This document shows, piece by piece, positions 5,291-41,145 of a stretch of 64,000 bases of DNA; within the stretch, counting starts at the first letter, position 1; each line of letters begins with the position of its first letter. Origin of the DNA: Candidatus Deferrimicrobium sp. (GTDB lineage Bacteria > Desulfobacterota > Deferrimicrobia > Deferrimicrobiales > Deferrimicrobiaceae); NCBI RefSeq assembly GCF_036396855.1, contig NZ_DASWKA010000043.1, positions 2,762 to 66,761 on the forward strand, given 5' to 3'. The notes beneath the pieces were generated by a model. It was not told the DNA's origin. It saw only the letters and a program-made list of their open reading frames with translations, and did no database searches. A program made the translations under genes and the position numbers.

Positions 5291-6203
5291 AGCGGATCCT
5301 CGGGTCGAGACGGGCGCACAGAATGTCCGTCGCCAGGTTCACCGCCACGGTGGACAGGGCGATGACGAGGACACACCCCTGGACGAGGGGGTAGTCCCTC
5401 GCATCGATCGCCTGGATCAGCAGGCGGCCGATCCCGGGCCACGAGAAGATCGTTTCGGTGATGACGCTCCCGGCGAGGACCGCACCGAACGACAGCCCCA
5501 GCACCGTGACGACGGGGACGAGGGCGTTGCGCAGCGCGTGGCGGACGACGGCGGACCGGAACGGAAGGCCCCTCGCGATCGCGGCCGTCACGTACTCCTT
5601 CCGGAGTTCCTCCAGCAGCGTCGCGCGGATCATCCGCGTCAGCAGCGCCGCCATCCCCGTCCCGAGCGTGATCGCGGGCAGCACCAGCGGACGGCCCGCG
5701 CCGTACCCCGACACGGGGAGAAGCCCAAGCTGCACGGAGAAGAGGAGCACGAGCAACGGACCGAGGAGGAAGTTCGGGATGGACAGGGAGAGCATCGCCG
5801 CGAAGCCCGACAGGTAGTCCGCGGCCTTCCCGCGCCGCATCGCCGCCAGCACCCCGAGCGGCAGGGCGACGAAGACCGCCACGGTGATGGACGTCGCGGC
5901 GAGAAGGACGGTGGCGGGAATCCGGCGGGCGATCTCGCCGAGGACCGGCTCCCGGCTGCGGAACGACACCCCGAGGTCTCCGCGCGGGATCCCCGCGAGG
6001 AACGAGGCGTACTGCGAAAGGATCGGCCGGTCGAGATGGAGCTCCCGGCGCAGTTCCTCCTTCTGCGCGGGGACGGCGCTTTCCCCCAGCATGATCTCGA
6101 CGGGATCCCCCGGAAGCAGGTGGATCAGCAGGAAGACGACGGTCACCACCCCGAATACCACGGGGAGGGTTCGCAGGAGGCGGCCGAGGAGGTATCTCCT
6201 CAC
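5283..6203 (-). CDS. peptide/nickel ABC transporter permease (DppB/OppB-like)
   Basis: ORF 5283..6605 trimmed to the GTG at 6203 (VRRYLLGRLLRTLPVVFGVVTVVFLLIHLLPGDPV, the classic DppB N-terminus). The GTGA overlaps the binding-protein stop. Confidence 0.85.
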   Translation of the reverse strand: MRRYLLGRLLRTLPVVFGVVTVVFLLIHLLPGDPVEIMLGESAVPAQKEELRRELHLDRPILSQYASFLAGIPRGDLGVSFRSREPVLGEIARRIPATVLLAATSITVAVFVALPLGVLAAMRRGKAADYLSGFAAMLSLSIPNFLLGPLLVLLFSVQLGLLPVSGYGAGRPLVLPAITLGTGMAALLTRMIRATLLEELRKEYVTAAIARGLPFRSAVVRHALRNALVPVVTVLGLSFGAVLAGSVITETIFSWPGIGRLLIQAIDARDYPLVQGCVLVIALSTVAVNLATDILCARLDPRIRYE

Positions 6204-8284
6204 CGCGGTCCTCCTGTCGAAGGAGCCACCGGATCCGGGACGATCCGCATCGCGCGTACGGGCGCGTAGCTTTCGTCCGGGGTGAGCCGGAAACCCGTCA
6301 GCCTGCGGTCCCGGACCAGCAGGTTCCGGCCCGCCCACATCGGGAACACCGGCAGGTCGCGCGCGAGGATACGCTGCACCCGCCGGTACATCGCCCGGCG
6401 TTTTTCCCTGGACGGCTCGAGCCTCGCAGACTCCGTCAGGCGATCCACCTCGACGTCGGAGTACCCCCCGCGGTTCGCGCCGTCGGGGGGACCGCTCCGT
6501 GAATGGAAGGCGTGGTGGAAGATGTCGGGGTCCGAGATCCCGACCCAGGTGAGACTGTAAATCTGGAAATTTCCCTTCTTGATGTCGGAGAAGAAGGTTC
6601 CCCACTCAAGGGATTGGATTTCAACGGCAATTCCTACCTGGCGGAGTTGCTCCTGGATCACGGTGGCGACGCGCCTGCGGACCTCGTTCTGCGACGTCTT
6701 GTACGTCAACCGGAGGCGGGGGAGAGGGCCGTCGCCGTCGGGGTCGGGGAACCCGGCGTCGTCGAGGAGCCGCCCTGCCCGCGCCGGATCGTACGGCGCC
6801 GCGGGAAGATCCGGATCGTGCGCCCATGACCCGGGGGGGAGGATCGAGGAGACGAGGTCGGCGCGCCCTTTCCAGATCGTCCGGACGATCGTCTCCCGGT
6901 CGATCGCGAGGGCGATCGCGCGCCGCACCCTTGCGTCGGACAGCGCCCGATCCCGGAGATGGAAGCCGAGATACGTGACGTTCCCCCCCGGGCCTTCCTC
7001 GACGACGAGCCGTCCGGACAGCGAAGCCGCCGGGAGCAGGTCGGGGTCGACCCCGTTGAGGGTGAAGTTCACGCTCCCCATCTTCAGCTCGAGGAAGCGC
7101 ACGTTGCTGTCGGGGACGAACTTGACCGTCACCGACCGGATCGGTGGCGAACCGCCGTAATACCCGTCGAATGCCGACAGGACCGCCTCGCCGTCGGGGG
7201 AGAGGTCGTCGATCCTGTAGGGGCCCGCTCCCACGGGCGGCGCGTAGCCGCGCGCCGGACTTTCGGCGGGAACGATCCCGCGCACCATCGTGGAGAGGAA
7301 CGGTGCGAACGGCTCGGAGAGGCGGAATACGACGGTCCGCGCGTCGGGGGTCCCGATCGCGGCCACGTGCCGATACAGCCCCCGGTGAGGGGACCGGTTC
7401 GCGGCGTCGAGGATCCACGCGAAGGTGTACCGCACGTCGGCGGAGGTGAGCGGGCGCCCGTCGTGGAACCGCAATCCCGGCCGAAGGTGGAATCTATACG
7501 TCAGGGGATCGGGCGATTCCCACCGTTGCGCGAGATCGGGGAGGGGTTCGCCGGCGGCGTCGCGGCTGACGAGGGAGGCGTGCGTCATCTGGAGGATCTG
7601 CTCGCCGTAGGCGTCGGTCGCCACCCGCGGGTCGACGTTCACGGGCGCCCCCGGCAGCGCGATCACCATCCGCCCCTCTTCGATCGGCAGCTTCTGCGCG
7701 CAACCCAACCCCGCAAGCAGTCCGATCGGGAGGAGAAACCAGGGGAGAAGGCGGTGCCGGACGATTTCCTCCAACGCCGCTTCCTCGATCCGGATCCGCT
7801 GCCGAAGGACGGCGAGGTTGGCGAGGGAGAAGAGGACGAGGGTCACGGGCGCGCGCATCAGGAGCGGGAGCAGCAGGAACTCCAGCACGATGACGAGGTA
7901 GTTCGGGTGGCGGAGGGACCGGTACGGGCCGGCCCGCACGAGGCGCGTGCCCGGGACGACCACGACCCGCGTGTTCCAGTACATCCCGAGCGAAGCGATC
8001 GCCCAGTACCGCAATGCGGTCACCACGGCCAGGGCGGCCAGGCATGTCCACGTTCGGATGTCCTCCGGGACTCGCCACGGGTAGGACTCCAGCGAAAGGG
8101 AGGCGAGGAAGAGAACGTGGAGGGACACCATCACTTTGTACGTATCGGGACGGACCTCCCTGCCGCCTCGCGAGAGCAGCCGCAGCCGGTTTCTCCGGCA
8201 CAGCCAAAGCTCCGACAGGCGCTGTGCGGCAACGACCGGCGCCACCCAAGCGAGGGAGATCATCCTTCCAGGACTCCTTTCCAT
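6200..8284 (-). CDS. single ORF: ICMT/PEMT-family membrane methyltransferase-like N-domain (aa ~1-170) fused in frame to a family-5 ABC substrate-binding lipoprotein (aa ~171-694)
   Basis: The N-part has multi-TM segments, RHPNYL and RIRIEEAAL motifs. No stop follows. A TTG at 7774 then gives LEEIVRHRLLPWFLLPIGLLAGLGC (signal peptide plus lipobox-like LGC), followed by a peptide-binding-protein fold. An alternative model is an SBP alone at 6200..7774. Confidence 0.7.
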   Translation of the reverse strand: MERSPGRMISLAWVAPVVAAQRLSELWLCRRNRLRLLSRGGREVRPDTYKVMVSLHVLFLASLSLESYPWRVPEDIRTWTCLAALAVVTALRYWAIASLGMYWNTRVVVVPGTRLVRAGPYRSLRHPNYLVIVLEFLLLPLLMRAPVTLVLFSLANLAVLRQRIRIEEAALEEIVRHRLLPWFLLPIGLLAGLGCAQKLPIEEGRMVIALPGAPVNVDPRVATDAYGEQILQMTHASLVSRDAAGEPLPDLAQRWESPDPLTYRFHLRPGLRFHDGRPLTSADVRYTFAWILDAANRSPHRGLYRHVAAIGTPDARTVVFRLSEPFAPFLSTMVRGIVPAESPARGYAPPVGAGPYRIDDLSPDGEAVLSAFDGYYGGSPPIRSVTVKFVPDSNVRFLELKMGSVNFTLNGVDPDLLPAASLSGRLVVEEGPGGNVTYLGFHLRDRALSDARVRRAIALAIDRETIVRTIWKGRADLVSSILPPGSWAHDPDLPAAPYDPARAGRLLDDAGFPDPDGDGPLPRLRLTYKTSQNEVRRRVATVIQEQLRQVGIAVEIQSLEWGTFFSDIKKGNFQIYSLTWVGISDPDIFHHAFHSRSGPPDGANRGGYSDVEVDRLTESARLEPSREKRRAMYRRVQRILARDLPVFPMWAGRNLLVRDRRLTGFRLTPDESYAPVRAMRIVPDPVAPSTGGPR

Positions 8285-8328
8285 GATTTCCGCACAATCA
8301 ATATATAATGGAGAAGGGGTGCCCCGGG
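8285..8328. promoter_or_regulatory. divergent intergenic region with an AT-rich patch (CAATCAATATATAAT)
   Basis: This is the only AT-rich stretch between the divergent 8284(-) and 8308/8329(+) genes. No consensus boxes could be assigned with confidence. Confidence 0.25.
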
Positions 8329-8949
8329 ATGAACATACGCGCAGTGCTGCTGCTGGCGACGCTGGCGGCGGTTTTTTCTCCTTCCTCCGCCGGGGAAGCG
8401 AAGGCGGATCCCCCCGCGTCGGCGACGATCCGGGGAGGATGCGACGTCGCTTTCCTCATCAGGTCCACCTTGCACGACATTCCCGGCTCCGCCCGTTGCC
8501 TGCCCTTTGCAGCGGTCCTTGCCCGCGACGCCGCCGGCAGGCAGGTCGTCCCGTCCGTGGAAGTGGAAGTGCCGGTGGAGGGGATGGACACGCGGAACCG
8601 GTCCCGCGACGGCCAGATGCGGGAGATGTTCCGGTCGGAGCGGTTTCCGCGAATCCACGCGGCGGCGCATAATGTGGATGTCGAACGGCTCCGGGCGGAA
8701 ACCGGAAACGGCCGCAAGGGGATCGCCTCCATCGACCTGCTCCTTCGGATTCGGGACAGGGAACGAAAGGTGCGCGCCACGGCGAGCAACCTGAAGGAGG
8801 CCGGCGAACAGGTCACCTTCGACATCGAGTTCCCCGTGTCGCTCGGGGAATTCGATCTGAAAGCCCCCTCCGTTCTCGGATTCATCCGTGTCGGGGACAA
8901 GGTCACCGTCAAGGCAAACTTCACCCTGACCGTTTCCCGATCTCCTTGA
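8308..8949 (+). CDS. secreted YceI-like (polyisoprenoid/lipid-binding) domain protein
   Basis: Signal peptide MNIRAVLLLATLAAVFSPSSAGEA (alternative start 8329, preceded by GAAGGGG). The YceI-like pattern is VEVPVEGMDTRNRSRDGQMREMFRSERFPRI, followed by beta-rich repeats. Confidence 0.6.
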   Translation: MEKGCPGMNIRAVLLLATLAAVFSPSSAGEAKADPPASATIRGGCDVAFLIRSTLHDIPGSARCLPFAAVLARDAAGRQVVPSVEVEVPVEGMDTRNRSRDGQMREMFRSERFPRIHAAAHNVDVERLRAETGNGRKGIASIDLLLRIRDRERKVRATASNLKEAGEQVTFDIEFPVSLGEFDLKAPSVLGFIRVGDKVTVKANFTLTVSRSP

Positions 8950-8982
8950 GGCGCATCCTATTGTAAGGGACGGAGGCACCCG

Positions 8983-10137
8983 ATGACCGCCTGGATCCAC
9001 CGGATCGACACGCTGCTTCCCGATTTCTCCTTCGCCCAGGAGGCGGCGATGGTGAAGATGCAGGAATGGGCTCGCGACGACCGGGAGCGGCGCCTGGTAC
9101 GCGCCGTTTACCGTCACTCGGGGATCGAGCGCCGCCACTCCGTCCTTCGAAACTACGATGGGGAAGGGGAGGGCGCATTCTTCCGGCCGGACGCCGGTGG
9201 AGCGCTTCGAGGCCCCGGGACCGCCGCCCGCAACGACATCTTTTCGACCGAGTCCCGCGCGATGTCGGTGGCGTTGGCCCGGAAGGTGATCGGAAACTGT
9301 CCCGGCGTCGCTCCCCCCGACGTGACGCACGTCGTGACCGTGTCGTGCACCGGGTTCTACAACCCCGGGCCCGACTACTACATCGTCCGCGAACTGGGGA
9401 TGTCCGACGCCACGCAGCGGTACCACCTCGGCTTCATGGGGTGCTACGCCGCCTTCCCCGCCTTGCGGATGGCCGCCCAGTTCTGCGCGGCGGACCCGTC
9501 CGCCGTGGTCCTCGTGATGTGCCTCGAGCTGTGCAGCCTCCACATCCAGTTGAACGGATCGGAGGACAACCTGCTCGCGAACTCGCTCTTCGCCGACGGG
9601 GCGGGGGCTGCGATCGTATCCGCCCGGGAGCCGGATCCGGGAACGCCCGCATATCGGCTGGCCGGTTTCCGTTCCGCGCTGGTTTCCGCCGGCGAGCAGG
9701 ACATGACGTGGAGGATCGGCGACCAGGGGTTCGACATCGCCCTGTCGAGCTACGTGCCGAAGCTGATCGGCTCGAACATCCGCGAGCTGGTCGGACCCGC
9801 ACTCGCCGCCGGGGGTCTGTCCACGTCCGACATCGCCACGTGGGCGGTCCACCCCGGGGGGAAGTCGATCATCGACCAGGTGCAGAGGACCCTCGGACTT
9901 TCCGACGACCAGGTGAGCGCCTCCCGCGAAGTGCTGCGCCGGCGCGGAAACATGAGCAGCGCCACCATCCTCTTCGTCCTCGAGGAGATCCTCAAGCGTC
10001 CCGCAGGGAAAGAGAGGGAGAGGGTCTGCGCCGTCGCGTTCGGGCCGGGGTTGACCGTAGAGACGGCGACCATGGAAGCGATCTTCGCTCCGGATGCCGT
10101 CGGGGCAGCCGCGGCGTTCCCCCTCCCGGCAGGATGA
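8983..10137 (+). CDS. type III polyketide synthase (chalcone/stilbene synthase family)
   Basis: Catalytic Cys in VTVSCTGFYNPGPDY, His in WAVHPGGKSII, Asn in RRGNMSSATILFVL, and C-terminal FGPGLTVE. Confidence 0.92.
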   Translation: MTAWIHRIDTLLPDFSFAQEAAMVKMQEWARDDRERRLVRAVYRHSGIERRHSVLRNYDGEGEGAFFRPDAGGALRGPGTAARNDIFSTESRAMSVALARKVIGNCPGVAPPDVTHVVTVSCTGFYNPGPDYYIVRELGMSDATQRYHLGFMGCYAAFPALRMAAQFCAADPSAVVLVMCLELCSLHIQLNGSEDNLLANSLFADGAGAAIVSAREPDPGTPAYRLAGFRSALVSAGEQDMTWRIGDQGFDIALSSYVPKLIGSNIRELVGPALAAGGLSTSDIATWAVHPGGKSIIDQVQRTLGLSDDQVSASREVLRRRGNMSSATILFVLEEILKRPAGKERERVCAVAFGPGLTVETATMEAIFAPDAVGAAAAFPLPAG

Positions 10138-11387
10138 GGCTCTCCGTCGCCACGAATTTCGACCCCGCGCTGGTCGATGCGCTCCGGGGGTTCCCGGTCG
10201 TCGAACTGTTCGGCAAGTTGCGGGAGGACGCAGTGGGCGGCGGGCGCGCTCCCTACCAGCTCGCGCCGGTGTCCCGGAAGGGGCTTGCCGCGCACGTGCG
10301 GTTTGCCCGGGCGGCGGGCATCTCCTTCAACTATCTCCTCAACGCGTCCTGCCTCGGCAACCGGGAGATCACGCGCGCCGGGCAGGCGGAGATCGAGAAC
10401 CTCTGCGGCTGGCTTTGCGGCATCGGCGTGGAGACGGTCACCGTTTCCTCCCCGTTTCTCCTTCGAATCGTCAAGACGCGCTACCCGGAGCTCAAGGTCC
10501 GGATCTCCGTTTTCGCGGGCGTGGATCGCGTGCGCAAGGCGCGGATGTGGGAGGAGATGGGCGCGGACGGGATCGTCCTCGACAGCCTCCTCGTGAACCG
10601 GGAATTTTTCACGCTGGCCCGGATCCGCGAATCGGTGAAATGCGACCTCGAGCTGCTGGTGAACAACAACTGCCTCTACTCCTGCGCCCTCTCCCCGGCC
10701 CACATGAACGCCCTGGCCCATGCCGGCCAGAAATGGCACGGAAACCGCGGCTTCTTCATCGACGGCTGCTTCCTGCGGTGCACGGAGATGAAGCTGCGGG
10801 ATCCCGTGAATTACATCCGCTCGGAGTGGATCCGCCCGGAAGACATCTCCGCGTACGAGGAAATGGGGTACGACCTGTTCAAGGTGACGGAGCGGGACCT
10901 TCCCACGCCGGTGATGGTCAACCGGGTCCGGGCCTACGCGGCGCGCCGGTACGACGGCAATCTCCTCGACCTGGTCCAGCCGTACGCCTTGCAGGGGGTG
11001 AGCGGGAGCGAACGGTACTACCGGAAGGGGATCGGGTGGCAGCGAAGGTTCCTCCTTCGACCGGGGCTGGTGAACCCCGCCCGGATGCTCCCGCTGAAGC
11101 GGCTGGCGGACATGCGGCACATGACCCGTCCGGTGACGGGTGCGCCTCCGGTGGTCGTCGACAACCGGGCGCTCGACGGCTTCATCGAAAGGTTCCGGGA
11201 GAAAGGGTGCCGCGACGTGGAGTGCGAGGCGTGCCGCTGGTGCCACGATTTCGCGGCGAAGGCGGTCCGGATCGATCCGGAGGAGAGCCGACGGGCGCTG
11301 GCGGCGTATGACGAGGTGTTCCGCTCCCTCGACGGCGGGGCGATGTGGCGGTACCTCCCGGGCGGGAACGGGGTCGGCGACCCGTGA
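10134..11387 (+). CDS. U32-family (peptidase U32 / UbiU-UbiV-TrhP superfamily) protein
   Basis: ATG 10134 overlaps the PKS stop (ATGA); ORF 9066..11387 is trimmed accordingly. N-terminus is MRLSVATNFDPALVDAL..ISFNYLLNASCLGN..VETVTVSSPFLLRIVKTRYPELKV. A Cys block, NNNCLYSC...GCFLRC, could bind an Fe-S cluster. The family call is from memory of U32 architecture and needs an HMM. Confidence 0.6.
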   Translation: MRLSVATNFDPALVDALRGFPVVELFGKLREDAVGGGRAPYQLAPVSRKGLAAHVRFARAAGISFNYLLNASCLGNREITRAGQAEIENLCGWLCGIGVETVTVSSPFLLRIVKTRYPELKVRISVFAGVDRVRKARMWEEMGADGIVLDSLLVNREFFTLARIRESVKCDLELLVNNNCLYSCALSPAHMNALAHAGQKWHGNRGFFIDGCFLRCTEMKLRDPVNYIRSEWIRPEDISAYEEMGYDLFKVTERDLPTPVMVNRVRAYAARRYDGNLLDLVQPYALQGVSGSERYYRKGIGWQRRFLLRPGLVNPARMLPLKRLADMRHMTRPVTGAPPVVVDNRALDGFIERFREKGCRDVECEACRWCHDFAAKAVRIDPEESRRALAAYDEVFRSLDGGAMWRYLPGGNGVGDP

Positions 11388-12118
11388 CCGTGCGATTCCG
11401 CCTCAAGGCGCGGGAGTGGCTCGACGTCCCGGAGCGGAAGCGGGTCTACAACGAACGCCACTTCGCCGTGGCGGCGTCGCGGTACGACCTGGCGACGCGC
11501 ATGATGTCGCTCGGGCGGGACGCGGCGTGGAAGCGGGCGCTCATCGCGGCCTTGCCGGACTTCCCGGCCCCCGTTTGCGTCGATCTTGCGTGCGGCACCG
11601 GCGACGTGGCCTTCCTTCTCGCGGGACGCTACCCCGAAGGGGACGTCACAGGGCTGGATCTTTCCGCGCCGATGCTGGCGATCGCGCGGGAGCGGAACCG
11701 GTTCACGAACGTCCGGTTCGAGCGGGGCGACCTGTGCTGCCTCCCGTTTCCCGACGGTTCCGCCGATGTCGTTACCGGGAGCTACGCCCTTCGCAACGCT
11801 CCCGACCTTTGGAAAGCCGTCGCCGAGGTCCGCCGGGTGCTTTCCCCCGGCGGCGTGGCGGCGTTCCTCGACTTTTCGAATCCGGAGCGTTCCCTCCTCC
11901 GGTATTCGCAATACCTTCTTCTGCGGAGCTGGTGCGGCCTCTGGGGATTCCTCCTTCACGGGACGCCGGAAATCCACGGATATGTCGCGGAGAGCCTGCG
12001 GGAGTTCCCGGACCGGAACCGGTTGCGGGAAATCTTCCGGGAGAACCGGTTCGAGGTGTCGGCGGAACGCCGTTATTATCTCGGGATCACGGGATTGGTT
12101 CTCCTGCGTCCGGCATGA
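11345..12118 (+). CDS. UbiE/MenG-family class I SAM-dependent C-methyltransferase
   Basis: FAVAASRYDLATRMMSLGRDAAWKR..VDLACGTGDVAF..GLDLSAPML..LPFPDGSADVVTGSYALRNAPD..RVLSPGG..FLDFS matches the UbiE pattern closely. An alternative GTG start at 11384 overlaps the upstream stop (GTGA). Confidence 0.85.
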   Translation: MAVPPGRERGRRPVTVRFRLKAREWLDVPERKRVYNERHFAVAASRYDLATRMMSLGRDAAWKRALIAALPDFPAPVCVDLACGTGDVAFLLAGRYPEGDVTGLDLSAPMLAIARERNRFTNVRFERGDLCCLPFPDGSADVVTGSYALRNAPDLWKAVAEVRRVLSPGGVAAFLDFSNPERSLLRYSQYLLLRSWCGLWGFLLHGTPEIHGYVAESLREFPDRNRLREIFRENRFEVSAERRYYLGITGLVLLRPA

Positions 12119-12155: not shown

Positions 12156-13070
12156 ATGGCGATTGAAATGGAGAATTCCGGAAGGCCCGCCGCAGCGGGC
12201 AAGTCTACCGGTTCCTACCGTCACGGTCTCGCCCGCCCCGCCTCCTACAAGATCGGCTATTCCCTCGGGAAGTGGCTTCCGAGAGCGGTTCTGTTCGCCC
12301 TCGCGGACCTCCTCGCCGACGCCACGCACTGGACGAATCCGGAACCGGCCCGGAATCTCCAGGCGAACTTGCGATCGGCCTTCCCACGATGGTCCGAGCG
12401 GGAAGTCGAAGAATTCTCAAAGAGGATTTTCCGGAACTTCGCCCGCAATCTGGTCGATTACGGACGATTCCCTACGATCACGGACGAAGCGCTGGATCGG
12501 TTGCTTCCCTCCGTCCAGAACCTCCACTTCATGGAAGAGTCCTTCGCAAAGGGAAAGGGGGTCATCCTCGTGACCGGCCACATCGGTAACTGGGAACTGG
12601 GCGCCCTGTTCTTCGGCCGGCACGGCTTCAAGATCAACGTCGTAACGATTCCCGAAGGGAGCGAGCGGATCGATTCGATCCGCGGAGCATATCGCACGCG
12701 CCAGAACATCCGCACGATTGTCGTCGACGGTTCCCCGTTCTCCTCCCTCGAGATCGTGGCGGCGCTCCGCAGGGGGGAGATCGTCGCCATGCTCGTGGAC
12801 CGGTGGGAAGGCGCCGACGGCGTACCGGCGAAATTCTTCGGCGCGGATCGTCGTTTCCCCCGAGGCCCGTTCGTTCTTGGACGGGCGATGGGCGCCCCCA
12901 TTCTCCCCGCGTTCATCGTCCGGGAGGGAAGCGTCTACCGGGGAGTCGTCGATCCCCCTTTTTTCGTGGAGGAGCCGGAGGATGAGCCCGGGGCGCGACG
13001 GGTAAGCGAGTCTCTCGAACGGATGGTTCGGGCCTGCCCGGACCAATGGTATGATTTCGCACCTCGTTGA
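12156..13070 (+). CDS. LpxL/HtrB-type lipid acyltransferase (lysophospholipid acyltransferase superfamily)
   Basis: Catalytic-box motif VTGHIGNWELG, plus the downstream VAMLVDR and FPRGP motifs typical of lauroyl/myristoyl acyltransferases. Confidence 0.8.
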   Translation: MAIEMENSGRPAAAGKSTGSYRHGLARPASYKIGYSLGKWLPRAVLFALADLLADATHWTNPEPARNLQANLRSAFPRWSEREVEEFSKRIFRNFARNLVDYGRFPTITDEALDRLLPSVQNLHFMEESFAKGKGVILVTGHIGNWELGALFFGRHGFKINVVTIPEGSERIDSIRGAYRTRQNIRTIVVDGSPFSSLEIVAALRRGEIVAMLVDRWEGADGVPAKFFGADRRFPRGPFVLGRAMGAPILPAFIVREGSVYRGVVDPPFFVEEPEDEPGARRVSESLERMVRACPDQWYDFAPR

Positions 13071-13101
13071 GGATCATGGATTCGAGCAAGGAGACGAACG
13101 G

Positions 13102-14679
13102 ATGGGGCCATTGAAGCGATCCTCGCCGGGGAATGCGGCTGGCGCGGAAGGGGAAGCGCGGTACTCTCTCGGAGGGGAGAAGGTCCTCCCCGTGCGGACG
13201 ATCCTCCCGAAGAAAACGCGTTCCCTGTGCCCGGAGTGTCTTCAAACGGTCCCCGCCGGTCTGTACGAAGAGAAGGGGCGGGTGATGATGCGGAAGCGTT
13301 GCCCGGATCACGGCACGTTCACCGACGTCATCTTCTCGGACGTGGAGATGTACCTCCGCCTGGGGCAGTGGTATTTCGGGGACGGAGAGGGATTCGCGAA
13401 CCCCATCGACGGCATGGGGAAGGAGTGCCCGAACCGTTGCGGCATCTGCGGGTCGCATTCGACGCACACCTCCCTCGCCAATATCGACCTCACCGCGCGC
13501 TGCAACCTGTCCTGTTCGGTCTGCTTCGCGGACGCCAACCGGAATTCGTTCGAACCGTCGTTCGAACAGGTGGTGGAGATGCTCCGCCGTTTTCGCGCCC
13601 AGCGTCCTGCGCCGGCATTCGCCGTCCAGTTCACGGGGGGCGAGCCTACGCTGCACCCGCGATTTCTCGATATCGTGGCCGAAGCGCGGAAAATGGGGTT
13701 TTCCCACCTCCAGGCGGCCACCAACGGCATTCGGTTCGCCGACCCTGAGTTCGCGCGCAGAGCGCGGGATGCCGGGCTCCATTACCTGTACCTGCAGATG
13801 GACGGGACGACCGACGACGTCTTCCTGAAGATCCGCGGGAAGGCGTTGCTGGACACCAAACTCCGGGTGATCGATTCCGCGCGGAAGGCCGGTCTCCGCG
13901 TCATCTTCGTCCCCACCATCGTGAAAGGGGTGAACGACCACCAGATCGGGGACCTCTGCCGCCTGGCCTTCGACCATCTCGACGTGCTGTCGGGGATTTC
14001 CTTTCAGCCGATGACGTTCACGGGGAGGTACCCCGAATCGGAGCGCGAGAAACTTCGATTCACCCTTTCGGACCTTTCCCGGGAGTTCAGCCGCCAGACC
14101 GGGCTCACCCACCCCCTGGAGGATTGGTTCCCCCTGAACGCCGCGGTTCCCCTGGTCCGATACGCGGGGGCCGTAACGGGGAACGTGGCGGTGAACCACG
14201 CGTGCCATCCCCATTGCGGGTTGATGACCCTGTTTTTCGTCGGCCGGAACCGCGAGGCCGTCCCGATCACGAGGTTCCTCGACCTCCGGGGACTTCTCGG
14301 AGAGGTGGAACGGCTGACGGGGAGCGCGAGGGCGAGCCGGGTCAAGAGCTTGTCGAAGATCCGCGCCCTCCAGGCTTTTTACCGGTTTTTCCGGGAGGAC
14401 CGGGCTCCGGCCGGGTTGACGTTTCTCCGCTTTCTCAAGACCCTCGACGGGTTCGCCGAAAAGAAATACAGTTGGGACGGAAAGCACGAAGGGCACACAT
14501 TTAAGACCTTCTATGTCCTCGGGATGCATTTCATGGATGCCTACAATTACGACCTCGAGCGCGTGTCGCGCTGCGGCGTTCATTATTCGGCCCGCGACGG
14601 AAGAATCTACCCGTTTTGCACCTACAACTCGGGACCCGTCCACCGTCATCGTATAGAGAATTCGATTGCGTCTTCTTGA
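13102..14679 (+). CDS. radical SAM protein with an N-terminal Cys-rich (zinc-ribbon/rubredoxin-like) region; resembles the tetraether-lipid-synthase (Tes/GDGT-MAS, MJ0619-type) family
   Basis: CNLSCSVC radical SAM triad preceded by CPECL..CPDHG and CPNRCGICGSH. AAGGAG sits 8 nt upstream of ATG 13102 (longer ORF from 13051). The radical SAM call is secure. The Tes-like subfamily call is from memory and tentative. Confidence 0.8.
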   Translation: MGPLKRSSPGNAAGAEGEARYSLGGEKVLPVRTILPKKTRSLCPECLQTVPAGLYEEKGRVMMRKRCPDHGTFTDVIFSDVEMYLRLGQWYFGDGEGFANPIDGMGKECPNRCGICGSHSTHTSLANIDLTARCNLSCSVCFADANRNSFEPSFEQVVEMLRRFRAQRPAPAFAVQFTGGEPTLHPRFLDIVAEARKMGFSHLQAATNGIRFADPEFARRARDAGLHYLYLQMDGTTDDVFLKIRGKALLDTKLRVIDSARKAGLRVIFVPTIVKGVNDHQIGDLCRLAFDHLDVLSGISFQPMTFTGRYPESEREKLRFTLSDLSREFSRQTGLTHPLEDWFPLNAAVPLVRYAGAVTGNVAVNHACHPHCGLMTLFFVGRNREAVPITRFLDLRGLLGEVERLTGSARASRVKSLSKIRALQAFYRFFREDRAPAGLTFLRFLKTLDGFAEKKYSWDGKHEGHTFKTFYVLGMHFMDAYNYDLERVSRCGVHYSARDGRIYPFCTYNSGPVHRHRIENSIASS

Positions 14680-15451
14680 GTTCGCGCGATCCCCATGGAT
14701 CTCCCGCGGGACCCGGGACGCTACACTAAGGTGGATCGTTTCCGCCACGCTCCTTGCGCTGCTCCTTTCTCCTCGGCCGAACTTCGCGGAGGAAGCCGTC
14801 CCGGACGGCAAGAGGATCACGGGAGCGGAGAGGGACCGCTGGTTCGAGGAGATCCGCGATCGCCAGAAGGGGGTCACCGGCTGGAGCGCCGCGGTGGTGC
14901 AGCGGAAGCGGGACCCGCTCCTGAAGCACGAGGCGGTGTCCAGGGGGAAGTTGTCGTTCCGGAAGCCGGCCTCGCTTCGATGGGAAGTGGAGAGCCCCGA
15001 AAGAAGGATCGTGGTGATGGATGGCCGGACGGTGACCGCCTATTATCCGAAGAGAAAGGAGGCCGAGCGGAGGGACATGCAGGACGATTTCGCGGCCCGC
15101 GCCGCGCTGGGTTTTATCGAATCGGGGATCTCCGCTTCCCTCCCCGAACTGGAACGACGATTCCAGGTCGACCTTTTCCGGTCAGAGAACCAGGTGGTAC
15201 TGCGGTTGACCCCGCGCTCGAAGATGCTGTCCCGCGTCATCGCATCGATCCGGGTCCACCAGGATCCTGTGGAGGGAGGGCCGCGTCGAATCGTGGTCGA
15301 GGGAGCCCGCGGGGATCGGACCGAGACGACGTTCTCCGGGGTGACACTCAACCCCGAATTTCCCCCGGACACCTTTTCCTTGCGGCTGGGACCCGAGGTC
15401 AGAGTCACGGAAACGGGGGGACCGGAACGGGACCGGATCGATTCGCCATGA
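14666..15451 (+). CDS. LolA-like outer-membrane lipoprotein carrier family protein
   Basis: TTG start and a signal-like segment, IVSATLLALLLSPRPNFAEE. LolA-like pattern: GKLSFRKPASLRWEVESPERRIVVMDGRTVTAYYP. Confidence 0.65.
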   Translation: MRLLEFARSPWISRGTRDATLRWIVSATLLALLLSPRPNFAEEAVPDGKRITGAERDRWFEEIRDRQKGVTGWSAAVVQRKRDPLLKHEAVSRGKLSFRKPASLRWEVESPERRIVVMDGRTVTAYYPKRKEAERRDMQDDFAARAALGFIESGISASLPELERRFQVDLFRSENQVVLRLTPRSKMLSRVIASIRVHQDPVEGGPRRIVVEGARGDRTETTFSGVTLNPEFPPDTFSLRLGPEVRVTETGGPERDRIDSP

Positions 15452-15537: not shown

Positions 15538-16713
15538 ATGACCATGTCGAGCGCAATGCCGGCCGTCCTGCTCCTCGACGGCTTGTGGAACAAGACGGTG
15601 GCGGCGGTCCGCTCCCTCGGGAAGCGCGGTTACCGTGTCTCGGTGGGGGAGAGGACCCGGTTCGCGCCCGCCCTGTTTTCGAGATACTGCTCGCGTCGTT
15701 TTCTTCACCCGTCGCCGGCAACCTCCCCGGAGGCATTTCTCGATGCGCTCGAAAAGGAGGTGCGCGTCGGCGGACACGACGTCGTTCTCGCGATGGAATT
15801 CGGCACGCAGGTCCTGCTCGCCCGGAATCGGCACCTCCTCGGGGGGAGGACGCGTTTCCCCTTCGCATCCGCGGACCTCGCGATCCGGGTCCAGGACAAG
15901 GGAGAGCTCGCGACGTTCGCATCGGCCCACGGCGTCGAGTGTCCCGCCACGTTCCGTCCGGAAGAGCCGGGGGACGTTCACGCGATGGCTTCGCTTCTCC
16001 CATACCCCCTCCTCATCAAGCCCAGGCTTTCCTCCGGAGGGAGAGGGATCGTGCGGGTGGAAACCGCCTCGCAGCTCCGGAAAGAGTATCCGAACGTGCA
16101 TGCCGTCCATCCGTCTCCGATCCTTCAGGAGTGCCTGCCCCCGGGAGGGGCCGCGCTGGGGGTGGCCGTTCTGATGAATTTTTCTTCCGAACCACGTGCA
16201 ACGTTCGCCTACCGGCGCCTGCGGGAATACCCCGTCGGCGGGGGCCCCAGCACGCTCCGGGAGAGCGTGCTGGACGAGCCGCTTTGCAGGACGACGGAAC
16301 GGCTCCTCTCGGCGCTCCAGTGGACCGGCGTCGCGATGGCGGAGTTCAAGGTCGACCCGAGGGACGGCAGGCCGAAGCTCCTCGAGGTGAATCCCCGATT
16401 CTGGGGATCGCTGCACCATGCGATCCTGTCGGGAGTCGATTTCCCGCACCTGTTGTGCCGGATGGCGATCGACGGGGATGTTCCTCCCCTGCGGGAGTAC
16501 CGGGTAGGCGTTCGGAGTCGATCCCTGATCCACGGGGACCTGATGCATTTCGCGGGAAACCCGCGGCGGTTCCACCTCGACCCCGGCTTCCTCGATTTTT
16601 CGATCCCGGATGACCTGCTGTCGACGTCGGATCCGTGGCCCGTGGTGGGGCGGGTGGCAACCCTGATCCCCGCGTGCTACGACAGGGACCTGCGGAAAAC
16701 GATGCTGGGCTAG
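15538..16713 (+). CDS. ATP-grasp domain ligase
   Basis: Pre-ATP-grasp N-domain (LLLDGLWNKTVAAVRSLGKRGYRV). Central LLIKPRLSSGGRGI and LQECLP motifs. C-terminal MAEFKVDPRDGRPKLLEVNPRFWGS, the ATP-grasp Mg site. Confidence 0.8.
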   Translation: MTMSSAMPAVLLLDGLWNKTVAAVRSLGKRGYRVSVGERTRFAPALFSRYCSRRFLHPSPATSPEAFLDALEKEVRVGGHDVVLAMEFGTQVLLARNRHLLGGRTRFPFASADLAIRVQDKGELATFASAHGVECPATFRPEEPGDVHAMASLLPYPLLIKPRLSSGGRGIVRVETASQLRKEYPNVHAVHPSPILQECLPPGGAALGVAVLMNFSSEPRATFAYRRLREYPVGGGPSTLRESVLDEPLCRTTERLLSALQWTGVAMAEFKVDPRDGRPKLLEVNPRFWGSLHHAILSGVDFPHLLCRMAIDGDVPPLREYRVGVRSRSLIHGDLMHFAGNPRRFHLDPGFLDFSIPDDLLSTSDPWPVVGRVATLIPACYDRDLRKTMLG

Positions 16714-16784
16714 GGGAATCGCTTCGCAAGCCGCGTCCGCGGGCACGGGATACGAAATCAGGAAACGGAGATGAGCGAAGGGCG

Positions 16785-17615
16785 ATGACGTGCCGGAACG
16801 CGCTGACCGTGGACCTGGAAGACTGGTATCACATCTGCGGGACGGGCCAGGCCGGGGACGTCTCCACGTGGGACGCGTATGAAAGTCGCGTGGTCCGCAG
16901 CACGGCGAGGATCCTTTCCCTTCTCCGGGAACATGGGGTCCGCGCCACGTTTTTCGTCCTCGGCTACGTCGCCGAACGCGAACCGGGATTGATCGCCGGA
17001 ATCGCGAAGGAGGGGCACGAGATCGCCACCCACGGACACTACCACCGAAGGGTGTTCGAAATGTCCGAGGAGGAGTTCGCGGAGGACGTCGATCGCTCCA
17101 TCGACGCGATATCGTCCGCCGGCGGGGGCCGCGTGATCGGGTACCGCGCGCCGGAGTGGTCCATCCGGCCCCACACGATGTGGGCGCTCCGGATCCTGCG
17201 GCGGAAAGGGATCCGGTACGACTCCAGCATGGTCCCCTTGACGCGAATGGGGGACCGCTCCTTCCCGACCGCGCCCTGCCGGATCCCGACGGAGGACGGG
17301 GAGATCCTCGAGTTCCCCTTGACCACCGTCCGCTGCTTCGGGGAACATCTCCCCTTCACGGGTGGGCTGCCGTTGCGCCTCATGCCGTATTTCTACGTTC
17401 TTTCGAGGATCCGCCGGATGAACGCGGTGGGAGATGCGGCGATGGTGTACGTCCATCCGTGGGAATTCGACGCCGGGCAGCCGAGGATCGAACTTCCATG
17501 GAGCCGCAGGTTCATGCATTATTTCAACCTGCGCTCGACCCCAGGGAAGCTTTCGGGGCTGCTCGGCAACCTGCGATTCGCGCCCCTCCGCGAAGTGCTC
17601 GAGATCGGCCAGTAA
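16785..17615 (+). CDS. polysaccharide deacetylase family protein (NodB-type, DUF3473-like C-terminus)
   Basis: ORF 16635..17615 trimmed to ATG 16785. ALTVDLEDWYH, ATFFVLGYVAEREP and HEIATHGHYH motifs. Confidence 0.85.
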   Translation: MTCRNALTVDLEDWYHICGTGQAGDVSTWDAYESRVVRSTARILSLLREHGVRATFFVLGYVAEREPGLIAGIAKEGHEIATHGHYHRRVFEMSEEEFAEDVDRSIDAISSAGGGRVIGYRAPEWSIRPHTMWALRILRRKGIRYDSSMVPLTRMGDRSFPTAPCRIPTEDGEILEFPLTTVRCFGEHLPFTGGLPLRLMPYFYVLSRIRRMNAVGDAAMVYVHPWEFDAGQPRIELPWSRRFMHYFNLRSTPGKLSGLLGNLRFAPLREVLEIGQ

Positions 17616-18939: not shown

Positions 18940-19515
18940 CTATTTTTTCAGGAACGCTTTCCGGAACCCGGGATCCCCGACCATCGCCATGAAAGCGTCA
19001 TCCACCAGCCGGTAGCTTCGCTTTTCCAGTTCCGCGGGATCCGCCGTCCCGGCCGGAGGCGTCTCCACCGTGAATTCCTTCTGGAACGTGGAATCCCCGG
19101 GCTTGATCAGGTTCGCGGTGAAGACGAATTTCTGATCGGAGACCGAGTTCAGGACGATCTGGAGTTCCGGCGCCGTCTCCGTTCCCGCCGTCCACGGATA
19201 AGCGAGAGCTCTCACGCCGATCCGGTTGAACGACTTGACGAAGCAGTCCCAGAAATACGTCTGGAGGGCCGGAGTCGCTTCATAGGCGTACTGGGAATCG
19301 GCGCTGTAGTAATCCCAGATGCTCGTGTTGGCGGCGTTGTTCGTCACGGAAGAGAAGTAAAGGGTTTTCCCCTTGTACGCGGACAGGTTCGCGGTTGCGA
19401 ACGAGGGATTGTAGCTGGTCTGCTTGATGAAGACTTTCGTCCCCCCCCTGGGGCAGCCGGTCAATGCCAGGAAACAGGCGAACAGCAGGACGCCCTTGCA
19501 GACGATTCTTCCCAT
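18940..19515 (-). CDS. lipoprotein of unknown function
   Basis: ORF 18940..20835 trimmed to ATG 19515. MGRIVCKGVLLFACFLALTGC carries a lipobox. Visibly more A/T-ending codons than neighbours. Confidence 0.7.
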   Translation of the reverse strand: MGRIVCKGVLLFACFLALTGCPRGGTKVFIKQTSYNPSFATANLSAYKGKTLYFSSVTNNAANTSIWDYYSADSQYAYEATPALQTYFWDCFVKSFNRIGVRALAYPWTAGTETAPELQIVLNSVSDQKFVFTANLIKPGDSTFQKEFTVETPPAGTADPAELEKRSYRLVDDAFMAMVGDPGFRKAFLKK

Positions 19516-19586
19516 TCGGGTTTCCTCCTCCTCCGGAACCGCCGGCGGCAAGACCGGGCGAATCCCGCGGTTATTGGTGATGGATA

Positions 19587-20735
19587 CTATACCACCGTGA
19601 GAAGCATGTAAGCCATGGAGAACCGGCCGCTTTCCGGGATCATGCAGAGGAGCCGTTCTCCCTTCCGAAGCCGGCCGGAGTGGAACAGCTCCTCGAGGAT
19701 GATGAAGATCGAGGCCGAACCGGTGTTCCCTTTCGTCGCCAGGTTGGAGAACCACCGTACCGGCGGGATGGAAAACCCGATCCCTTCCATCCTCCGCCGG
19801 AGCGGTTCCAGGAAAAAGTCCGAGGAGTAGTGGGGAAGGAACCAGTCCACGTCGGCCGGGACGATCCCATGCCGGGCGATCACGCTCATCAGGGCGCGGT
19901 CGACGGCCATCTTGATGATCTCCCGGTTCAGGAGGCTCACGTCCTGCTGGACGAGAAAAGCGTCCGACGAGGCGGCCTCCCCCGGGGAATCGAAGGAGCG
20001 CCACCCGGTAAGGCTGCCGTCCGCGTTCTTCACAGCCCCGGAATACATGCAGGTTTCCAGTTCGTTGGCGTAGGAGAGATGGTCGATCCAGTCGATCCGG
20101 AGGGCAGGTTTCTCCTCCGGCGGGGTCCCGGAGAGAAAGGCCGCGCCCGCTCCGTCCGACAGCATCCAGCGAAGGAAATCGGCCTGGAAGGCCAGGATCG
20201 GCCGGGCCTCCAGCGCCGTTTCGCTCTCGGGCGGCACATTCCGGAACATCCCGGCCCTCAGGAATGTGGAGGCCAGTTCGGAACCGGTCGCGACCGCGTT
20301 CCGGACAAGTCCCAGGGCAACGTTCATGGCGGCGTATTTCAACGCGCCGATTCCCGAGAGGCAGATTCCGGCCGTTGTGACGACTTCGCAGGGGGCGCCG
20401 CCCAACTCGCCGTGCACCATCAACCCGTGTCCCGGAAGAAGCTGATCCGGTGAGGACGTCCCGCAGGCAAGGCACTCGATCTCCGCGGGGGTGAATCCCG
20501 CGTACGGTTTCAGGCGGCGTACCGCCTCGGCGGTGAGTTGGGCGTTCGTATGCGTGACGCGGCCGGTTGCCGGATCGATGGCGTAGTAGCGCTCCCGGAT
20601 CCGGTTTTTCCGGAGGACAATGCTCCGGGTCCGGGAAGGCGCCCCGCCGATCCTCCCGAGAATGCTCTCCATGGACCGGTTGTCGACCGGCGCGTTCGGA
20701 AGAAACGCCGCCAGGTCGGTGATGTAAGCGTTCAT
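19587..20735 (-). CDS. beta-ketoacyl-ACP synthase III family (FabH/DarB-like) condensing enzyme
   Basis: ORF trimmed to ATG 20735. Candidate active-site Cys in TTAGICLSGIGALKYA, HYSSDFF (His) and KGNTGSASIFIILEE (Asn). Confidence 0.8.
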   Translation of the reverse strand: MNAYITDLAAFLPNAPVDNRSMESILGRIGGAPSRTRSIVLRKNRIRERYYAIDPATGRVTHTNAQLTAEAVRRLKPYAGFTPAEIECLACGTSSPDQLLPGHGLMVHGELGGAPCEVVTTAGICLSGIGALKYAAMNVALGLVRNAVATGSELASTFLRAGMFRNVPPESETALEARPILAFQADFLRWMLSDGAGAAFLSGTPPEEKPALRIDWIDHLSYANELETCMYSGAVKNADGSLTGWRSFDSPGEAASSDAFLVQQDVSLLNREIIKMAVDRALMSVIARHGIVPADVDWFLPHYSSDFFLEPLRRRMEGIGFSIPPVRWFSNLATKGNTGSASIFIILEELFHSGRLRKGERLLCMIPESGRFSMAYMLLTVV

Positions 20736-20749
20736 CTTCGGGGCATACC

Positions 20750-22045
20750 TCAAAGTCTGGCGTTGGCGTGGAACGCCTTGACCAGTCCGGCATACCGCTC
20801 GTAGAACCGTTTTTCGCCCAGGAAGGTCGGGACAACCGCGTTCGTGAGCGTGTAGTAATCGAGATCGTGGAGGACGATCCGGTCCGACCAGGCGGCGTGA
20901 AGGGGGTGGCCTGGAAGGGGAGTGAGTACGGCGAGCAGGGGAAGGTCGATCTTCCGTTCTGTCACATACCGTTCGAGGGCGTCGAATCGCTCCTCGTCGT
21001 AGTCGGGGGACACGATGAAATCGCCCACGATGGAGACCCCCATCTCGTGGAGGATCGCGATGGCTTCGTCGTTCACGGCCACGCTTCCGGATTTGTTCAG
21101 GGAGGCGAGCGCGTCGTCCGTGATCTCCTCGAACCCGATGATCACGGAACGGAGCCCCGCCTCTTTCCAGCGGCGCAGCAGATCGGGGTGGAGGACCACG
21201 GTGTCGGATCGGACGTCGACCACGAAGTTTTTCCGGATGCCGGCTGAGAGGATCCCCTCCGCGAGGAGCGAAGCATGGCGCGGGTCGCCGAAGGTGTTCG
21301 CATCCACGAGACGGATTACCGGGATGTCGCCCAGCGCCCGGATGTCCGCGATCACCGTTTCGACGGTGTGGTTCAGGTACCGGCCGCCGGTGAGGGAGGA
21401 GATGCAGCAGAACGAGCATCGGTACGGACATCCGAACGCCGATGCCACGAAGCCGATCCGGAAGCCGAGCGAGGAGAGCGTGTAGCTGTCCCGATACCGG
21501 GCGACGAGATCGTAGCGGGGCGGACCGGTTTCCACAAGGTCGGCGGGGCCGAATTCCCTGGGGACGAAGGCGAGTCTGCCGCCGGAGTTCGTCCGGGCGA
21601 CGCCGGGCAGGTTGCCGGCATCCCGGTCCGCCTCGATCGCCGCCGCCAGTTCGGCGAAACTGGCCTTGCCGAGGCCCACGACCACGTAATCGATGCAGGA
21701 CCGGTTGAAGAAGTCCGGATCGCAACTGGCGTGGATTCCCCCCGTCACCACGGTGGCGCCGAGGTTTTCCTTGACCTCCTCCGCGAGACGCACCACCGTG
21801 TTCGCTTCGCAGGTGACCGCGGTGAAGCCGACCAGATCCGGCCCGAAGCCCGAGAGGGCGTCGTGGAACCCCCCCGGCTCCGCCTTCAGATCGAGGATCC
21901 GCACCTCGTGATCTTCCAGACCTCCCGCGAGCACTTCCAACGCGAGCGGCTCTCCCCGGAAGATCTGACGGATGGAGTCGATCCCGTAGCGCTCTTCGGG
22001 GATGCTTCGGCCGCAATTCGGCGGGTTGACCAGGAGGATCTTCAT
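20750..22045 (-). CDS. B12-binding domain radical SAM protein
   Basis: N-terminal MKILLVNPP..LEVLAGGLEDHEVRILD (cobalamin-binding Rossmann-like domain). FGCPYRCSFC radical SAM triad. Confidence 0.88.
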   Translation of the reverse strand: MKILLVNPPNCGRSIPEERYGIDSIRQIFRGEPLALEVLAGGLEDHEVRILDLKAEPGGFHDALSGFGPDLVGFTAVTCEANTVVRLAEEVKENLGATVVTGGIHASCDPDFFNRSCIDYVVVGLGKASFAELAAAIEADRDAGNLPGVARTNSGGRLAFVPREFGPADLVETGPPRYDLVARYRDSYTLSSLGFRIGFVASAFGCPYRCSFCCISSLTGGRYLNHTVETVIADIRALGDIPVIRLVDANTFGDPRHASLLAEGILSAGIRKNFVVDVRSDTVVLHPDLLRRWKEAGLRSVIIGFEEITDDALASLNKSGSVAVNDEAIAILHEMGVSIVGDFIVSPDYDEERFDALERYVTERKIDLPLLAVLTPLPGHPLHAAWSDRIVLHDLDYYTLTNAVVPTFLGEKRFYERYAGLVKAFHANARL

Positions 22046-22069
22046 GGGAGCGACGCCACGCGGACCATC

Positions 22070-24801: not shown

Positions 24802-25061
24802 TCCCGATGGTTCTGGATGAATTCGGCCAGCGTTCGAAGGGATCGGAGCACCTTGCGGCTGGTCTCCTGGGAGTCGATCCGGATGTGGTATTTCCGCTGG
24901 ACGGCCACGACGATCTCGACCGCATCGAGGGAGTCGAATCCGAAGGGAGACTCCGGCCCGATCAGGGGGGCGTCCGGCGACGGATCGGCGGGCGGCGATT
25001 CCGCGCACCGGCAGGTTTCGATGATCATCTCGACCAGTTCGCGTTCCAGTGCGGATAGCAA
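24798..25061 (-). CDS. acyl carrier protein (ACP 1)
   Basis: 87-aa ORF (TTG start) with the phosphopantetheine site FGFDSLDAVEIVVAV. Confidence 0.8.
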   Translation of the reverse strand: MLSALERELVEMIIETCRCAESPPADPSPDAPLIGPESPFGFDSLDAVEIVVAVQRKYHIRIDSQETSRKVLRSLRTLAEFIQNHRE

Positions 25062-25101
25062 ACGATTCTCCTCGGGATCGCGCCGTCTTCGCGCGCGATG
25101 T

Positions 25102-26442: not shown

Positions 26443-26455
26443 TTCCGTCTCCGTG

Positions 26456-28280: not shown

Positions 28281-28299
28281 GGACGATCTCCCGATGCCG

Positions 28300-28722: not shown

Positions 28723-28744
28723 CGGCGATACCTTCCCGTCTGCC

Positions 28745-41121: not shown

Positions 41122-41145
41122 CAGGACTGCCGGAACTGGGGCCCG

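Follow-up and report, generated by a model that had tools for sequence, protein, structure and literature searches.

The best-described enzymes close to the gene reported here are the archaeal tetraether lipid synthases (Tes/GDGT-MAS), namely MJ0619 (structures 7TOL and 7TOM), MA_1486, and Maeo_0574. These are radical S-adenosylmethionine (SAM) enzymes, and archaeal Tes makes macrocyclic archaeol as well as glycerol dialkyl glycerol tetraether (GDGT) (PMC8941075). Four metal sites have been described in GDGT-MAS: a rubredoxin-like iron bound by C9, C12, C33, and H36; an N-terminal [4Fe-4S] cluster bound by C73, C77, C80, and “a conserved histidine”; the radical SAM cluster; and a C-terminal [4Fe-4S] cluster, on a sulfur of which the lipid radical is parked and to which the labile Met439 belongs (PMC9433317). 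Here, we describe a bacterial member of this family, a gene at positions 13102-14679 of a 64,000-nucleotide stretch of DNA from Candidatus Deferrimicrobium sp. (contig NZ_DASWKA010000043.1; “the window” denotes this whole stretch). The gene stands in a conserved operon between the genes of an LpxL-type acyltransferase and a LolA-like lipid carrier.

Few markers of past temperature and pH on the continents are used as widely as branched GDGTs (brGDGTs). Which organisms produce them, and which enzyme joins the two tails, is still debated; the enzyme Mss accounts for anaerobes such as Thermotoga and Clostridia. Zeng et al. (2022) listed 456 bacterial Tes homologues and proposed them as makers of membrane-spanning bacterial lipids such as brGDGTs (PMC8941075), and Halamka et al. 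suggested that in the brGDGT producer Solibacter usitatus its Tes homologues carry out the coupling (PMC10087280). Sahonero-Canavesi et al. found that Thermotoga and Thermoanaerobacter have no Tes homologues and use the radical SAM enzyme Mss instead, and that only 3/14 iso-diabolic-acid-producing acidobacteria carry Tes homologues; most known producers of diabolic and iso-diabolic acids lack them and use Mss. Mss (Tmari_0825 of Thermotoga maritima; WP_129545148.1 of Thermoanaerobacter ethanolicus) has been demonstrated to join two fatty-acid tails under anaerobic conditions, the same reaction as we propose, and its predicted architecture was reported to be similar to that of Tes. It belongs to a different sequence family according to published BLAST searches, in which genomes with Mss had no Tes homologues. 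The role of bacterial Tes has been no more than a hypothesis since 2022, and no paper that assayed a bacterial Tes was found in the literature searched, which lacks most subscription journals. The idea of membrane-spanning lipids is thus not new but is the hypothesis of Zeng et al. 2022, and the gene described here is a further member of a family with a known, already auto-annotated, uncharacterised bacterial branch. The conserved operon is what this locus adds; in the same literature, neither a description of it nor any report that connects Tes to LolA or to an acyltransferase was found.

The product of 13102-14679 is almost certainly a complete member of the Tes/GDGT-MAS family in sequence, cofactor sites, and fold. 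The enclosing open reading frame (ORF) runs from 13051 to 14679 (+), and an identical protein of 525 residues is present in eight public contigs, in all of which it is called from the ATG equivalent to 13102. A ribosome-binding site, AAGGAGA, lies 7 nt before this ATG. Together with the public gene calls it supports the 525-residue start, and the coordinates given by a first-pass annotation of the sequence were exact. In Pfam, the protein matches Radical_SAM (E 1.6e-26) and Zn_ribbon_HMPTM (E 1.7e-19), with no B12-binding domain found in the scan. It scores 498.9 bits on the NCBIfam profile NF045702 (rSAM_GDGT_ether, “tetraether lipid synthase Tes”) over profile positions 1-482 of 486, where the curated equivalog cut-off is 450 bits. 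Since the E-values of family hidden Markov models reach 1e-149, a chance match can be excluded. Among solved structures, the only strong sequence match is the GDGT-MAS MJ0619 (7TOL/7TOM; E 2e-112, residues 29-521), with 39% identity to 7TOL over 483 aligned positions. An AlphaFold 2 model, built from the aligned sequences of 40 family members from bacteria and archaea, has a predicted local distance difference test score (pLDDT) of 84 and a predicted template modelling score (pTM) of 0.88. In a Foldseek search with this model, 7TOM and 7TOL were the only full-length matches (492 columns, template modelling (TM) score 0.83-0.87) and the model superposes on their four-domain fold, whereas the next matches, MoaA, SkfB, and viperin, covered only the radical SAM core (TM about 0.3). 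The first-pass annotation had assigned the protein to the MJ0619/Tes family, and had named best matches to unrelated radical SAM subfamilies as evidence that would speak against this. The profile and the model agree with the assignment and such matches were not seen: generic radical SAM models all scored below 80 bits, and the TrsS radical SAM (seleno)protein model NF045646 reached 330.5 bits against a cut-off of 490 and matched only the N-terminal 300 residues.

The cofactor sites are intact. In an alignment to 7TOL, all 15 metal-binding residues of GDGT-MAS are conserved, including the labile methionine, and the 15 positions are invariant across the 40 aligned bacterial and archaeal sequences. 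The three motifs that had been noticed at the first pass in a non-B12 radical SAM protein are all present in the translation, as C43-PE-C46 with C67-PD-H70 for the iron site, C109-PNR-C113-GI-C116-GS-H119 for the N-terminal auxiliary cluster, and C134-NLS-C138-SV-C141 for the radical SAM triad. By position in the alignment, the conserved histidine ligand of the N-terminal cluster would be His83 in MJ0619 and H119 here. Likewise, C372, C491, and C506 are the putative ligands of the C-terminal cluster, judged from their invariance and position.

The nearest relatives of the protein, 82-96% identical, come from metagenome-assembled genomes of groundwater, the subsurface, and soil that are labelled “Deltaproteobacteria bacterium”, “bacterium”, or “Candidatus Deferrimicrobiaceae”. 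Identity is about 70% to homologues of NC10/Methylomirabilales and other Deferrimicrobiaceae, 57-60% to those of Dissulfurispiraceae and other Nitrospirota, and 47-55% to those of many Bryobacterales, Solibacteraceae, and Terriglobia (Acidobacteriota), one Poribacteria genome, and bacterium HR10. In a rough neighbour-joining distance tree, midpoint-rooted and without outgroup or bootstraps, all bacterial homologues form one clade that is sister to the archaeal clade with MJ0619; the tree does not include MA_1486 and Saci_0703, which are validated, or MA_1114, a weak paralogue. The bacterial clade splits into clade A, of acidobacterial type, and clade B, which holds Nitrospirota, NC10, and Deferrimicrobia with the gene described here. 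Some clade-B loci (L004, L020, and protein P0056) carry the labels Actinomycetota, Bacteroidales, or Candidatus Acidoferrum, and their Tes and adjoining genes are 70-92% identical to the Deferrimicrobia/NC10 type; the odd labels probably reflect binning errors or recent transfer.

Names in the databases differ. Some close relatives bear the NCBI/GenBank product name “tetraether lipid synthase Tes”, and other entries call homologues “7,8-dihydro-6-hydroxymethylpterin dimethyltransferase”, after the old HMPTM annotation of MJ0619, which also survives in the name of the Pfam domain. A radical SAM methylase of pterins or other cofactors, or another non-lipid enzyme, would fit these names, but we regard it as highly improbable. 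The pterin methylase activity could not be reproduced in the study of MJ0619, where a narrow hydrophobic lipid tunnel and lipid-coupling activity were shown instead (PMC9433317). Moreover, the conserved neighbours of the Tes gene are all lipid-related. A further point against a pterin enzyme is that, to our knowledge, no methanopterin pathway is to be expected in these bacteria.

The second line of evidence is the operon. The neighbours proposed at the first pass, an LpxL-type acyltransferase and a LolA-like protein, are borne out by PF03279 and PF03548. The acyltransferase gene ends 31 nt upstream of the Tes start, and the start of the LolA-like ORF overlaps the Tes stop by 14 nt. The acyltransferase is under every NCBIfam equivalog cut-off, and the LolA-like protein scores below the cut-offs of LolA and LolA2_flexi (59 vs 125 for the latter); its N-terminus looks like a Sec signal peptide. 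Synteny was compared in a sample of 80 related loci from species-representative genomes, and the counts refer to loci with enough flank. The acyltransferase gene is directly upstream of Tes in all 21 clade-B loci but in 0/54 of clade A, and the LolA-like gene directly downstream in 20/21 of clade B but in 0/56 of clade A. With L046 as reference, the clade-A neighbourhoods had no conserved neighbour, and even the adjacent gene is common to at most 9/58 loci. A search with the acyltransferase returned 421 homologues (E <= 1e-10); the best 120 are all at least 78% identical, with no distant members among the matches listed.

Further genes accompany this trio in clade B. Most clade-B loci with enough flank, those of NC10 and Nitrospirota among them, have an ATP-grasp gene close to Tes (46-92% identity), and the deacetylase with DUF3473, which resembles the deacetylase of the XrtA system (TIGR03006, 266 bits vs cut-off 276), is conserved near Tes throughout the clade. 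A Dissulfurispiraceae (Nitrospirota) contig has the full operon with overlapping reading frames, in the order acyltransferase, Tes, LolA, DedA/VTT, radical SAM/SPASM, two unassigned ORFs, B12 radical SAM, ATP-grasp, an unassigned ORF, deacetylase with DUF3473, a small ORF, ketosynthase (KS), and chain-length factor (CLF). NC10 loci show the same gene order with overlapping frames and a KS homologue at the equivalent position, and in Nitrospirota a KS/CLF pair lies downstream of the Tes operon. A homologue of the B12 radical SAM enzyme 46139-47659 occurs about 2.5 kb from Tes in L012, L014, L015, L018, and L019, and in four of these five loci it is about 72% identical. In three phyla, clade-B Tes is thus accompanied by genes for an acyltransferase and a lipid carrier, for an ATP-grasp ligase and a deacetylase, and for B12 radical SAM enzymes and dedicated ketosynthases; the ATP-grasp, deacetylase, B12 radical SAM, and KS/CLF/acyl carrier protein (ACP) genes are usually near the trio. 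This compact cross-phylum operon could serve as a defined construct for anaerobic expression in another host, which would test acyl-tail coupling directly.

The operon lies in one lipid cluster that spans about 8.3-51.6 kb of the window (about 43 kb; Table 1). Peptide-transport and cell-wall genes border it on one side, and ccsA, hemA, hemC, hemB, and polA on the other.

Table 1. Features of the Tes gene and the surrounding lipid cluster in the window
Feature	Position	Strand	Basis or content
LpxL/PatA-type (Lip_A_acyltrans) acyltransferase	12156-13070	+	PF03279 E 1.5e-35
Tes/GDGT-MAS-family radical SAM enzyme, 525 aa	13102-14679	+	NF045702, 7TOL match, AlphaFold 2 model
Rubredoxin-like iron site C43, C46, C67, H70 (MJ0619 C9, C12, C33, H36)	13228-13311	+	7TOL alignment
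N-terminal auxiliary [4Fe-4S] C109, C113, C116, H119 (MJ0619 C73, C77, C80, His83)	13426-13458	+	Alignment
Radical SAM CX3CX2C motif C134, C138, C141 (MJ0619 C98, C102, C105)	13501-13524	+	Pfam and alignment
C-terminal auxiliary-cluster region C372, M475, C491, C506 (MJ0619 C338, labile M439, C455, C470)	14215-14619	+	Alignment
LolA-like lipid carrier	14666-15451	+	PF03548 E 5e-16
ATP-grasp ligase	15538-16713	+	PF15632, PF02655
Polysaccharide deacetylase with DUF3473, like XrtA-system deacetylase	16635-17615	+	PF01522, PF11959
Accessory block	18940-29091	-	Unassigned ORF, DarB, B12 radical SAM, GT2+DUF2062, deacetylase-methyltransferase fusion, ABC-2 transporter, DarH, DarG-family
DarB-type ketosynthase	19587-20735	-	NF005293 548 vs 450
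HpnR-like B12-binding radical SAM	20750-22045	-	Domain and NCBIfam scans
DarH	27255-28280	-	NF053550 470 vs 300
DarG-family protein	28300-29091	-	NF053536 142 vs 70
CLF-like protein	29587-30759	-	
Ketosynthase (KS)	30756-31928	-	
ACP	31925-32203	-	
Second LpxL/PatA-type acyltransferase	32179-33090	-	
B12-binding radical SAM ORF	33126-35654	-	Domain scans
B12-binding radical SAM ORF	35923-37422	-	Domain scans
Remaining cluster	37185-51592	.	KS genes, 4HBT thioesterase, ApeI-like dehydratase, PlsC-type acyltransferase, CrtI-family FAD oxidoreductase, FabG/FlxB-like reductase, methyltransferase
HpnR-like B12-binding radical SAM, candidate lipid C-methylase	46139-47659	+	TIGR04367 244 bits vs cut-off 650
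Second ACP	47767-48177	+	
MMPL/HpnN-like exporter	49055-51592		

The cluster had been called rich in B12 radical SAM enzymes, which is correct: it has four B12-binding radical SAM ORFs, all within 33 kb of Tes. The two at 33126-37422 are 88-96% conserved beside KS/CLF in the close relatives L004 and L008. In the first of these two (842 aa), the B12-binding and radical SAM domains are confined to the C-terminal 460 residues; the N-terminal 360 residues have no Pfam match and a weak tblastn match to another B12 radical SAM enzyme (25% identity, E 1e-9), which suggests either a tandem duplication that has degenerated or a wrongly called start. The second acyltransferase and the second ACP escaped a simple codon-bias filter. 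The FabG/FlxB-like reductase scores 312 on the FlxB model, against a cut-off of 340. A ladderane-type cluster was considered and rejected (TIGR04072, 41-89 bits vs cut-off 360), as were true hopanoid HpnR, HpnJ, and HpnN genes, for which all scores were far under the cut-offs.

Of the described biosynthetic systems, aryl-polyene, flexirubin, and dialkylresorcinol clusters share the most parts with this one, including KS/CLF pairs, two ACPs, an ApeI-like dehydratase, a 4HBT thioesterase, a FabG/FlxB-like reductase, PlsC- and LpxL-type acyltransferases, GT2+DUF2062, a LolA-like protein, an MMPL exporter, and DarB, DarG, and DarH. For aryl-polyene lipids, the acyltransferases of the cluster attach a dedicated chain to a lysophospholipid, and the product is proposed to reach the outer membrane by way of LolA/LolB-like proteins and an RND exporter (10.1101/2020.12.19.423268). 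Unlike these clusters, the window has Tes, four B12 radical SAM ORFs, an ATP-grasp ligase, and deacetylases, and among the ORFs scanned at 6-52 kb neither a domain for aryl-starter supply (ammonia-lyase, 4-hydroxybenzoate activation) nor a DarA aromatase was recognised. The cluster is partly of dialkylresorcinol type, because DarB, DarH, and the DarG-family protein all pass their NCBIfam cut-offs. The reading frame of the DarB stretch (18.9-20.75 kb) was set by analysis of codon-position GC; relatives are about 90% identical there at the DNA level and tblastx was uninformative. The ORF at 18940-19560 (-) gave no family match.

The dialkylresorcinol part is accessory, since the block from DarB to DarG, with its ABC-2 transporter, GT2+DUF2062 gene, and one B12 radical SAM gene, is missing in L008 and L010 although their Tes proteins are 92-93% identical to the one described here. 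Where this block is missing, the Tes operon remains, as do KS/CLF and two B12 enzymes.

Taken with the family assignment, this setting points to a preferred reading, namely Tes-type tail coupling of a lipid that is assembled by the cluster and exported, to which, by analogy with archaeal Tes and aryl-polyene systems, we would give about an even chance. From family membership, the intact cofactor sites, the fold, and the conserved operon we infer the reaction, and it is probable, on the archaeal model, that this enzyme couples the tails of some lipid. Gene order suggests that these are the tails of the lipid made by the adjacent acyltransferase and that the coupled product is exported; the chance of a cluster-specific substrate seems a little short of even. 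By analogy with GDGT-MAS, the radical SAM cluster would cleave SAM to a 5'-deoxyadenosyl radical, which would take a hydrogen from the terminal carbon of a saturated tail in the hydrophobic tunnel. A sulfur of the auxiliary [4Fe-4S] cluster at the C-terminus would hold the lipid radical until a second SAM-derived radical, formed on a second tail, attacks to give a Csp3-Csp3 bond, and the product would be a tail-to-tail coupled, two-headed or macrocyclic lipid. In such a pathway, the type II synthase of the cluster would make acyl chains, the B12 radical SAM enzymes may methylate them, and the LpxL-type acyltransferase would put them on a lipid acceptor before Tes joins the tails. Transport of the product toward the outer membrane might then fall to the LolA-like protein, the ABC-2 transporter, and the MMPL exporter. 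Whether the trio with the ATP-grasp ligase, deacetylase, B12 radical SAM enzymes, and KS/CLF/ACP forms an undescribed bacterial pathway to Tes-welded, outer-membrane-exported, possibly mid-chain-methylated lipids is a more doubtful matter, and we offer it tentatively.

Alternatively, Tes could couple iso- or methyl-branched diacyl or dialkyl glycerolipids of the bulk membrane into membrane-spanning lipids of the iso-diabolic-acid or brGDGT type, with the B12 enzymes adding methyl groups, which we consider rather unlikely in this locus. Membership in the Tes family fits this well, as do the HpnR-like B12 radical SAM enzymes of the cluster and the 47-55% identical homologues in Solibacteraceae and Bryobacterales, the order of Solibacter usitatus. 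In addition, the tunnels of GDGT-MAS bind bacterial ester phospholipids (phosphatidic acid), with non-specific headgroup binding (PMC9433317). However, the distribution of Tes described above argues against it, with Mss as the proven bacterial coupling enzyme, and so does the strict operon link to a dedicated acyltransferase and LolA in a specialised cluster with its own KS/CLF/ACP and exporters. Among the window ORFs scanned, no ether-forming family of PlsA/Ger, ElbD, or AGPS type was found. The conserved link to acyltransferase, LolA, and aryl-polyene/dialkylresorcinol-type genes is at least as good an indication of a specialised lipid for export as of tetraethers in the bulk membrane. Of the first-pass proposal, the family assignment and the neighbourhood have held, and membrane-spanning or mid-chain-methylated lipids of the brGDGT type remain a proposal.

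The acidobacterial Tes proteins of Bryobacterales, Solibacteraceae, and Terriglobia, proposed as brGDGT synthases, are the sister group of the clade-B proteins and equally uncharacterised, but their genes stand alone. The difference between stand-alone and operon genes suggests that bacterial Tes may have two roles, one in bulk membrane lipid and the other in a specialised exported lipid, which would matter where gene surveys take “Tes hits” as a proxy for brGDGT production. If the tentative pathway of coupling and export does operate in clade B, anaerobic Deferrimicrobia, NC10, and Nitrospirota would be unrecognised sources of two-headed branched lipids outside the Acidobacteria. Their products could include brGDGT-like or “orphan” branched tetra-acid biomarkers of groundwater, soils, and sediments.

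Coupling within one molecule also has to be weighed. Tes might perform other radical chemistry on the product of the cluster, such as an intramolecular macrocyclisation, a ring closure, or a cross-link of alkyl chains in a dialkylresorcinol or glycolipid. The macrocyclic archaeol made by archaeal Tes is a precedent, and the paralogue MA_1114 made only the macrocycle (PMC8941075). With DarB, DarG, and DarH in the cluster, two-chain phenolic lipids are possible, and the two LpxL-type acyltransferases could load two chains on one scaffold. Yet close relatives keep the Tes operon where the dialkylresorcinol genes are absent, and sequence does not distinguish intra- from intermolecular coupling. 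This chemistry is judged clearly unlikely.

Several points weigh against the preferred reading, a coupled and exported cluster lipid. The validated archaeal Tes enzymes are just 35-42% identical to the protein described here, which falls in a separate bacterial clade of a tree that is itself rough; its host is a bacterium with presumably acyl rather than isoprenoid lipids, and its function is predicted. The function of bacterial Tes homologues is called unconfirmed both in a 2025 study of the Black Sea and in a 2026 review. As MA_1114 made only traces of macrocyclic archaeol (PMC8941075), family membership does not guarantee a robust tetraether-type activity. Gene order indicates functional linkage and does not identify a substrate. 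The product of the cluster is not uniform, since L008 and L010, both close relatives, lack most of the 18940-29091 block, including its dialkylresorcinol genes and ABC transporter. Finally, we know of no precedent for a LolA-like chaperone that carries a double-length, two-headed lipid.

The base composition of the cluster differs from that of its surroundings. Its G+C content is 0.62-0.66 vs 0.67-0.70 in the flanks, and at third codon positions 0.73-0.87 vs 0.87-0.92 in the heme-synthesis and polA genes (52.7-61.5 kb). The lower G+C content and a Tes tree that does not follow phylum boundaries hint at lateral transfer of the cluster.

A four-gene cassette at 8308-12118, immediately before the acyltransferase gene, encodes a YceI-like protein, a type III polyketide synthase that is DpgA-like (177 bits, under the cut-off), a protein of the peptidase U32 family, and a UbiE-type methyltransferase. 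At least the polyketide synthase and methyltransferase genes are upstream of the acyltransferase gene in L007, and parts of the cassette are on public contigs with identical Tes (L084-L086). It is absent in L002, L003, L006, and L010, where an SBP_bac_5/ICMT gene adjoins the acyltransferase. O2-independent ring hydroxylases that act in ubiquinone synthesis belong to the U32 family, and the cassette might serve an anaerobic alkylresorcinol or alkylquinone synthesis. Next to it in the window, the ORF at 6200-8284 (-) encodes an unusual fusion of 694 aa, in which an ICMT/PEMT domain (residues 80-174) is followed by a family-5 extracellular solute-binding domain (residues 247-592), and this fusion is about 90% conserved in close relatives.

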